A stretch of DNA of 26,098 nucleotides from Eledone cirrhosa (Eukaryota): assembly GCA_964016885.1 (NCBI GenBank), contig CAXHJY010001361.1:1-26098 (forward strand), in the 5' to 3' direction. Shown piece after piece: positions 11,440 through 11,526 of the stretch (its first letter is position 1; every line of letters starts with the position of its first letter). The notes below the pieces were generated by a model. The model was given only the letters and a program-made list of their open reading frames with translations. It did not search any database and had not been told where the DNA came from. The translations under genes and the position numbers were made by a program.

Positions 11440-11526
11440 GTTCAACACTGACACAGGAACGATGTACTAGTTTCAAGCTTGTTAGCTATCATCAGCACCG
11501 TTTACCCATCTGCCAGATAGTTGAAC
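11440..11526 (-). ncRNA. Type I hammerhead ribozyme, copy 3 (core 11458-11502)
   Basis: Same motif. TCATCAG (=CUGAUGA) at 11489-11495, TTTC (=GAAA) at 11471-11474, predicted GUA| cut between 11465 and 11464. Confidence 0.88.

Follow-up and report, generated by a model that had tools for sequence, protein, structure and literature searches.

The window analysed here is a 26,098-nt stretch of Eledone cirrhosa DNA (contig CAXHJY010001361.1), which contains a tandem array and the microsatellite repeats bordering it. The array (10,199 to 26,091, minus strand) is composed of 33.5 head-to-tail units of 474 bp (472-480; TRF period 474, 99% matches), has a GC content of about 0.35, and includes 32 complete cut-to-cut units, 19 of which are identical. 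At its 3' end, in the sense of the transcript, it is flanked by a (TA)n microsatellite of 10.2 kb (3 to 10,199), and at its far end by a TA repeat (26,092 to 26,098), only 7 nt of which precede the end of the window. Every 474-bp unit carries one type I hammerhead, complete in 33 consecutive units, where two consecutive tandem units are sufficient to define a non-LTR retrozyme; the unit is also small, non-coding, below 50% GC and free of LTR organisation, and the layout of the array is thus retrozyme-like. Open reading frames are present within the array in some length variants only, where they span an internal AT-rich tract (11,222 to 11,344, minus strand), which forms a long predicted hairpin in the RNA and in which most of the variation in unit length falls. 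No tRNA gene was found in the unit, and the window contains no evident reverse transcriptase gene.

The reference copy of the hammerhead (11,440 to 11,526, minus strand) is an extended type I motif (fold z-score -2.72; 4 of 200 shuffles as good), present in all 33 units, with cores that show no difference over 105 nt in any of the 33 copies. On the minus strand, the core elements CUGANGA, GAAA and UH are arranged in order around three helices, of which helix I is open. Stem I is formed by a 5' strand (11,496 to 11,502) that makes 7 pairs with its 3' strand (11,458 to 11,464), and it runs past an internal loop to 11,526/11,440, the two outer helices being predicted with pairing probabilities of 0.9-1.0. 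Next come the core segment C3-A9, CUGAUGA (11,489 to 11,495, with C3 at 11,495), stem II (11,475 to 11,488), in which a U10.1·U11.1 mismatch is followed by 4 bp and the loop AACA, and the core segment G12-A15.1, GAAA (11,471 to 11,474, with G12 at 11,474 and A15.1 at 11,471). The U·U at 11,488/11,475 stands in place of a standard pair at the helix II base (G10.1-C11.1 or other), a substitution described as tolerated in natural hammerheads in PMC3088659. Among the bases expected to mediate contact between loop I and loop II, the UA of the 5' loop I strand and the final A of loop II agree with the Rfam HH9 model, and the others differ from it. Stem III is formed by C15.2 (11,470), the loop UA (11,469-11,468), G16.2 (11,467) and U16.1 (11,466), and is followed by A17 (11,465); from the hammerhead numbering, cleavage is predicted after the GUA triplet, between 11,465 and 11,464. 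A sequence-only reading of this DNA had noted that GAAA is followed here by CUAG and UA, leaving a minimal stem III of 2 bp closing a 2-nt loop, and that ACTAGT (11,466 to 11,471) is self-complementary. Both observations hold: positions 11,465 to 11,474 read TACTAGTTTC, or GAAACUAGUA on the minus strand, with 33 occurrences, and ACTAGT likewise occurs 33 times, at spacings of 472-480 nt. Stem III is short and palindromic, so that ACUAGU gives 2 pairs and a 2-nt loop alone and 6 bp between two copies. Two further palindromes lie close by, namely CAAGCUUG/CAAGCTTG (11,474 to 11,481), which spans loop II, stem II and G12, and a perfect 16-nt palindrome (11,531 to 11,546) just upstream of the extended stem I, found in 33 copies.

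A hammerhead descriptor applied to the 474-bp unit gives one match on the minus strand, none on the plus strand and none in 20,000 dinucleotide shuffles of the unit. At Rfam gathering thresholds there is no match in the window; the HH9 model, which carries a longer stem III, gives the hammerhead 18.5 bits (E 0.02), its gathering score being 52, and the array thus illustrates how such motifs are missed at these thresholds. Rfam miRNA and snoRNA matches below the gathering score were rejected, as they arise from the AT tract. An snRNA-type promoter, suggested by the octamer-like ATTTGCAT (11,576 to 11,583, all 33 units), is doubtful, since these bases are predicted to be part of a hairpin and are altered in one of the related contigs; its link to the promoters of newt satellite 2 is presumed.

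Pattern scans for similar motifs returned at least 171 loci, 4 of which pass the hammerhead descriptor among the matches listed: 2 of 22 in viral contigs and 2 of 18 in metagenomes. A further viral contig scan gave none among 120 matches listed, one prokaryote genome scan gave no loci and another gave 11, none of which pass, and a plasmid search for close relatives of the unit gave no match. None of loci L001-L040 matches the unit outside the ribozyme, except in words of 13-16 nt. The two passing loci with a short stem III, L030 (ACGCGU) and L033 (ACACGUGU), both carry perfect palindromes that differ in sequence and a U·U stem II; the other two, L019 and L020, have a long, non-palindromic stem III. 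Since L030 and L033 lie outside this repeat family, they support a general rule rather than covariation in the array, and the comparative set comprises only these two other short-stem-III motifs, from unrelated contigs. Given the pairs A15.1-U16.1 and C15.2-G16.2, a palindrome requires only a self-complementary 2-nt loop, for which the probability by chance is 0.27, so that, taken by itself, this family's palindrome is weak evidence. As to the individual loci, L030 (252-303, minus strand) is a type I hammerhead scoring 31.9 bits with HH9, situated just downstream of telomere-like CCCTAA repeats, and resembles telomere-associated Penelope-like elements. The L033 motif (431-502, plus strand), likewise of type I, has an 8-nt palindrome as its stem III, its active double form is its best cofold, and a hammerhead-free repeat lies downstream of it. 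L019 and L020 (about 300-345) are solitary type I hammerhead candidates with a U·U stem II in viral contigs, missed by Rfam at E 0.5, and the L019 candidate lies between two short ORFs.

Closer relatives of the unit are found in sequencing runs. The stretch from 11,340 to 11,690 is present wholly or partly in 20 of the 24 listed runs (15 studies), 17 of them with half or more of its words; 19 of the 20 come under 15 organism labels and one is a wastewater metagenome. No RNA run is among those listed as containing it, which is uninformative as to expression. Close kin, a co-sequenced organism, contamination or horizontal transfer may explain this distribution. A raw Hi-C DNA run, sampled at about 1 in 100 of its content, yielded 0 reads from the stretch and is too thin to count as a test. 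From 3 of the 24 runs we compared 14 contigs, 10 of which overlap positions 11,465 to 11,474, 7 of them well inside the contig ends. These contigs are up to about 20% diverged and keep the core: within C3-A9 only N7 (11,491) has a listed substitution, and loop II also varies. One contig (depth 2) carries a change of U11.1 that gives a U-A pair at the stem II base, and one shows a compensatory double change in stem I, from G·U to U-A at 11,498/11,462. No substitution at 11,465 to 11,474 is among the differences listed in the 14 contigs; with about 20 of 103 nearby positions varied, this invariance of 10 positions has a chance of about 0.1 and is not significant. A GC-rich hairpin (11,350 to 11,365) is present in every unit, and the loose ends of related contigs near it hold other sequence that is also able to form a hairpin, hinting at selection on RNA structure beyond the ribozyme.

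Folding models were used to compare the single and double forms. In the isolated ribozyme, the active monomer fold costs +8.5 to +8.9 kcal/mol, a figure that is overstated because the ViennaRNA energies forbid 2-nt loops and ignore tertiary contacts and Mg2+; the double hammerhead formed between two molecules is predicted to cost +0.35 to +0.7 kcal/mol per core, placing it 16.4 kcal/mol below two active monomers. For L019 and L020, which come from phage contigs and have a long stem III, the monomer cost is 0.7-3.0 kcal/mol and the gain from dimerisation 0.6-1.4 kcal/mol. A single copy of the array hammerhead is predicted to prefer a slipped 6-bp helix, in which G2.3-G5 pair with the stretch from loop III to C1.1 (probability 0.71-0.98). 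The idea that such a lock is unique to this family was set aside, being weakened by the block of similar strength in L030 (2.5-2.7 kcal/mol, compared with 2.9-3.0 in the array hammerhead) and by one related contig in which the slipped helix loses its first pair. We also modelled a 641-nt transcript containing two cores, for which the double fold comes at +13.4 kcal/mol, compared with +17.75 for a pair of monomer folds and +8.9 for a single one; the double fold is thus dearer in total than one active monomer. When the 16-mers are held as local hairpins, the cost of the double fold falls from 13.4 to 7.8 kcal/mol, giving a range of 3.9-6.7 kcal/mol per core, and pairing of the 11,531 to 11,546 palindrome between copies would accordingly compete with the double hammerhead. 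Left unconstrained, the two-unit transcript forms the inter-copy stem III with a probability of 0.00, and the best, lowest-energy cofold is an inactive dimer paired through CAAGCUUG, with an ensemble energy 3.5-3.9 kcal/mol below that of the active dimer. From the topology of the hammerhead, the long stem I, formed first within one copy, would have to swap partners for the double form to arise. This exchange was absent from the sequence-only reading, as were the U·U of stem II, the slipped helix blocking the monomer and the competing palindrome CAAGCUUG. A circle of one unit is predicted to bear the same monomer cost (+8.87 kcal/mol), which fits slow re-cutting. The minus-strand circle folds to -157.2 kcal/mol, compared with -120 for the plus strand, with 68% of its bases paired and none of 60 shuffles as good, a value inflated by the AT tract; the part of the unit outside this tract is likewise structured (z-score -2.78, 2 of 200 shuffles as good), and the models thus describe a stable, self-paired circular RNA.

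The sequence-only reading had also proposed that two copies pair through ACUAGU into a double hammerhead with a 6-bp stem III, that this dimer is obligate, that the tandem arrangement is itself needed for cleavage, and that a one-unit circle would be protected. The preference for the dimer is likely and is supported by the modelled folding energies, by the two other short-stem-III hammerheads with their different palindromes and by published analogues; the word 'obligate' goes beyond the evidence. Nor is adjacency strictly required, as separate molecules could pair too. We consider it fairly probable that the locus is a non-LTR retrozyme (hammerhead satellite) array whose minus-strand transcripts cut mainly as a double hammerhead, the dimer being preferred and not obligate. 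A single copy would sit mostly in the inactive slipped helix, which buries C3-G5 and the cut site, and a minus-strand transcript across several units would cut mainly in the double form, two copies swapping stem I partners and forming the 6-bp ACUAGU duplex, such that each core would cut at the site in its partner. Cutting would release 474-nt monomers that a host ligase could circularise, and the resulting one-unit circle would re-cut slowly rather than being immune.

This is how animal type I hammerheads in tandem repeats are already modelled in the literature, and the gain from the present array is mainly one of cataloguing. Most metazoan type I motifs have a helix III of 1-2 bp with a palindromic loop of 2-4 nt and act as dimers in tandem repeats (PMC4209133), and palindromes are widespread in repeat-type hammerheads (PMC3088659). 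The inference of a protected circle is not new either, as the introduction of PMC4209133 states that action as dimers is thought to spare the monomeric circles of small RNA pathogens. By sequence, the array has the features of a non-LTR retrozyme, and its motif would work like the dimer-preferring hammerheads of amphibians; it is a further example of a design known from salamander and other animal repeats. The axolotl retrozymes Rtz_331 (HHR_Amex1) and Rtz_353 (HHR_Amex2) are also head-to-tail, with one type I hammerhead per unit, a GC content below 50% and a structured predicted circle, and their dimers cut far better than their monomers and give circles in vivo (PMC7229834). Amex1 has one pair and a palindromic tetraloop in helix III, the array motif sharing this very weak palindromic helix III, a likeness that rests on the textual description of Amex1, and Amex2 has, like the array motif, a U·U at the helix II base. 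The two weaknesses are separate in Amex1 and Amex2 and united here; other differences are the unit size (474 bp compared with 330-350 in axolotl), the internal AT hairpin and the (TA)n setting. Newt satellite 2 and avocado sunblotch viroid (Forster et al. 1988, via PMC6155905 and PMC4209133) likewise lengthen a short stem III by means of two tandem copies and share the idea that monomeric circles escape re-cutting; the viroid differs in being an RNA replicon, and the newt motifs in having a canonical stem II base and in being known to cut as extended monomers also. The minimal or short-stem-III hammerheads that Penelope-like elements carry (PMC4209133; Lünse et al. 2017, as cited) share the palindromic 15.2-16.2 pair and loop 3, cleavage as dimers and, in some clades, (TA)n targets, whereas the array motif has a long helix I, a 4-bp helix II and a U·U replacing the conserved G10.1-C11.1. 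Like the array, the pDo500 satellite of Dolichopoda cave crickets has a unit of similar length (463-505 bp) with a type I hammerhead, for which single, double and extended folds have all been proposed (PMC2837043), but in its double form stem III is made within one copy, stems I and II are exchanged, and the stem II base is G-C. Retrozyme units range from 51 to 972 bp, and retrozymes have been linked to Penelope-like elements (bioRxiv 2026.07.22.740005). Searches in the text of open papers turned up no account of this particular family, and the motif may be shown by Lünse et al. 2017 or in the supplement of PMC7229834. PMC7229834 leaves open how the circles of metazoan retrozymes are protected from re-cutting, and a motif with weaknesses in stems II and III and no variation among 33 copies is suited to a comparison of monomer, dimer and circle on this question.

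A strictly obligate dimer, in which the stem II U·U, the weak stem III and the slipped-helix lock would keep monomers and one-unit circles from ever being cut, is doubtful. The combination in one motif of weaknesses found separately in two axolotl families speaks for it, as do the modelled monomer cost of about 8.9 kcal/mol and the minimal Schistosoma motif, for which PMC4209133 reports no monomer cleavage. Both comparable axolotl monomers, however, cut measurably if slowly, 6% in 1 h for Amex1 and 22% in 1 h for Amex2 (PMC7229834), and newt motifs with looped helix I extensions cleave as monomers (PMC6155905), while the array hammerhead has both a stem I extension and some of the loop-contact bases of HH9.

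It is also unlikely that the motif is a nearly inactive relic, which would scarcely cut in either form without host proteins and would owe its uniformity to recent DNA-level amplification. Variant units recur in the pairs 6/19, 7/20, 10/23 and 12/24, at spacings of 13, 13, 13 and 12 units (about 23,336-20,007 and about 17,162-14,309), and this recurrence in units 6-12 and 19-24 points to DNA duplication, or else assembly, as the origin of part of the array, so that the length of the array is uninformative as to a need for dimers. The duplicated block of units speaks for a relic; in the models the best cofold is an inactive dimer, 8 of 9 Xenopus retrozyme dimers did not cut, only 1 of 9 cutting in vitro (bioRxiv 2026.07.22.740005), and Penelope-type motifs are slow even as dimers (PMC4209133, among others). 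On the other hand, all 33 copies retain an intact core, related contigs diverged by up to about 20% keep it and show a compensatory pair, and the unit is structured outside its AT tract. A periodicity of rolling-circle origin across the whole array was rejected, as the recurrence is limited to units 6-12.

We regard as quite unlikely an efficient monomer, held together as in newt by the extended stem I and a loop I-loop II contact, with the palindrome being incidental. The high pairing probability of the extension, the reported need for looped helix I extensions in monomer cleavage (PMC6155905) and the chance of 0.27 for a palindromic 2-nt loop are all in its favour. A C-G pair can, in addition, close a 2-nt loop in CUUG-type loops. 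Against it stand the departures from the HH9 consensus among the loop-contact bases, the predominance of the slipped helix in models of a single copy, and the retention of palindromes, spelled differently, in L030 and L033 and, widely, among repeat-type hammerheads (PMC3088659). Improbable, finally, is a retrozyme family that targets (TA)n, is spreading among many species and carries a ribozyme with a three-way switch, in which CUAG would be both the key to the active dimer and the lock on the monomer (its AG pairing with C3-U4 of the core), CAAGCUUG and the 16-mer would set which copies pair, circles would stay silent until unlocked by a chaperone or partner, and the near-identical sequence under 15 organism labels would reflect horizontal spread.

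Returning to a retrozyme array that prefers the dimer, its surroundings hint at how it may have been mobilised. Neither end of the array coincides with the predicted cut site: the 5' end is at position 84 of the unit, the 3' end at about 314, and both run into TA repeats; ends inside the unit are compatible with a circular template. As some Penelope-like clades are noted to target (TA)n (PMC8557442), the flanks are also compatible with mobilisation by a TA-targeting Penelope-like element, and no (TA)n-inserted retrozyme was found among the titles in our literature searches. The element probably entered (TA)n through the action of a Penelope-like reverse transcriptase, after which the array would have grown at least partly by DNA duplication. 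The units adjoining the microsatellite (10,199 to 10,990) carry several single-base indels unique to them, possibly sequencing errors, and the (TA)n tract itself (3 to 10,199) contains an internal duplication of about 3.9 kb, recognisable from rare words at 176/4,074, 446/4,342 and 834/4,716, as well as strand-switched segments between about 7,200 and 9,000.
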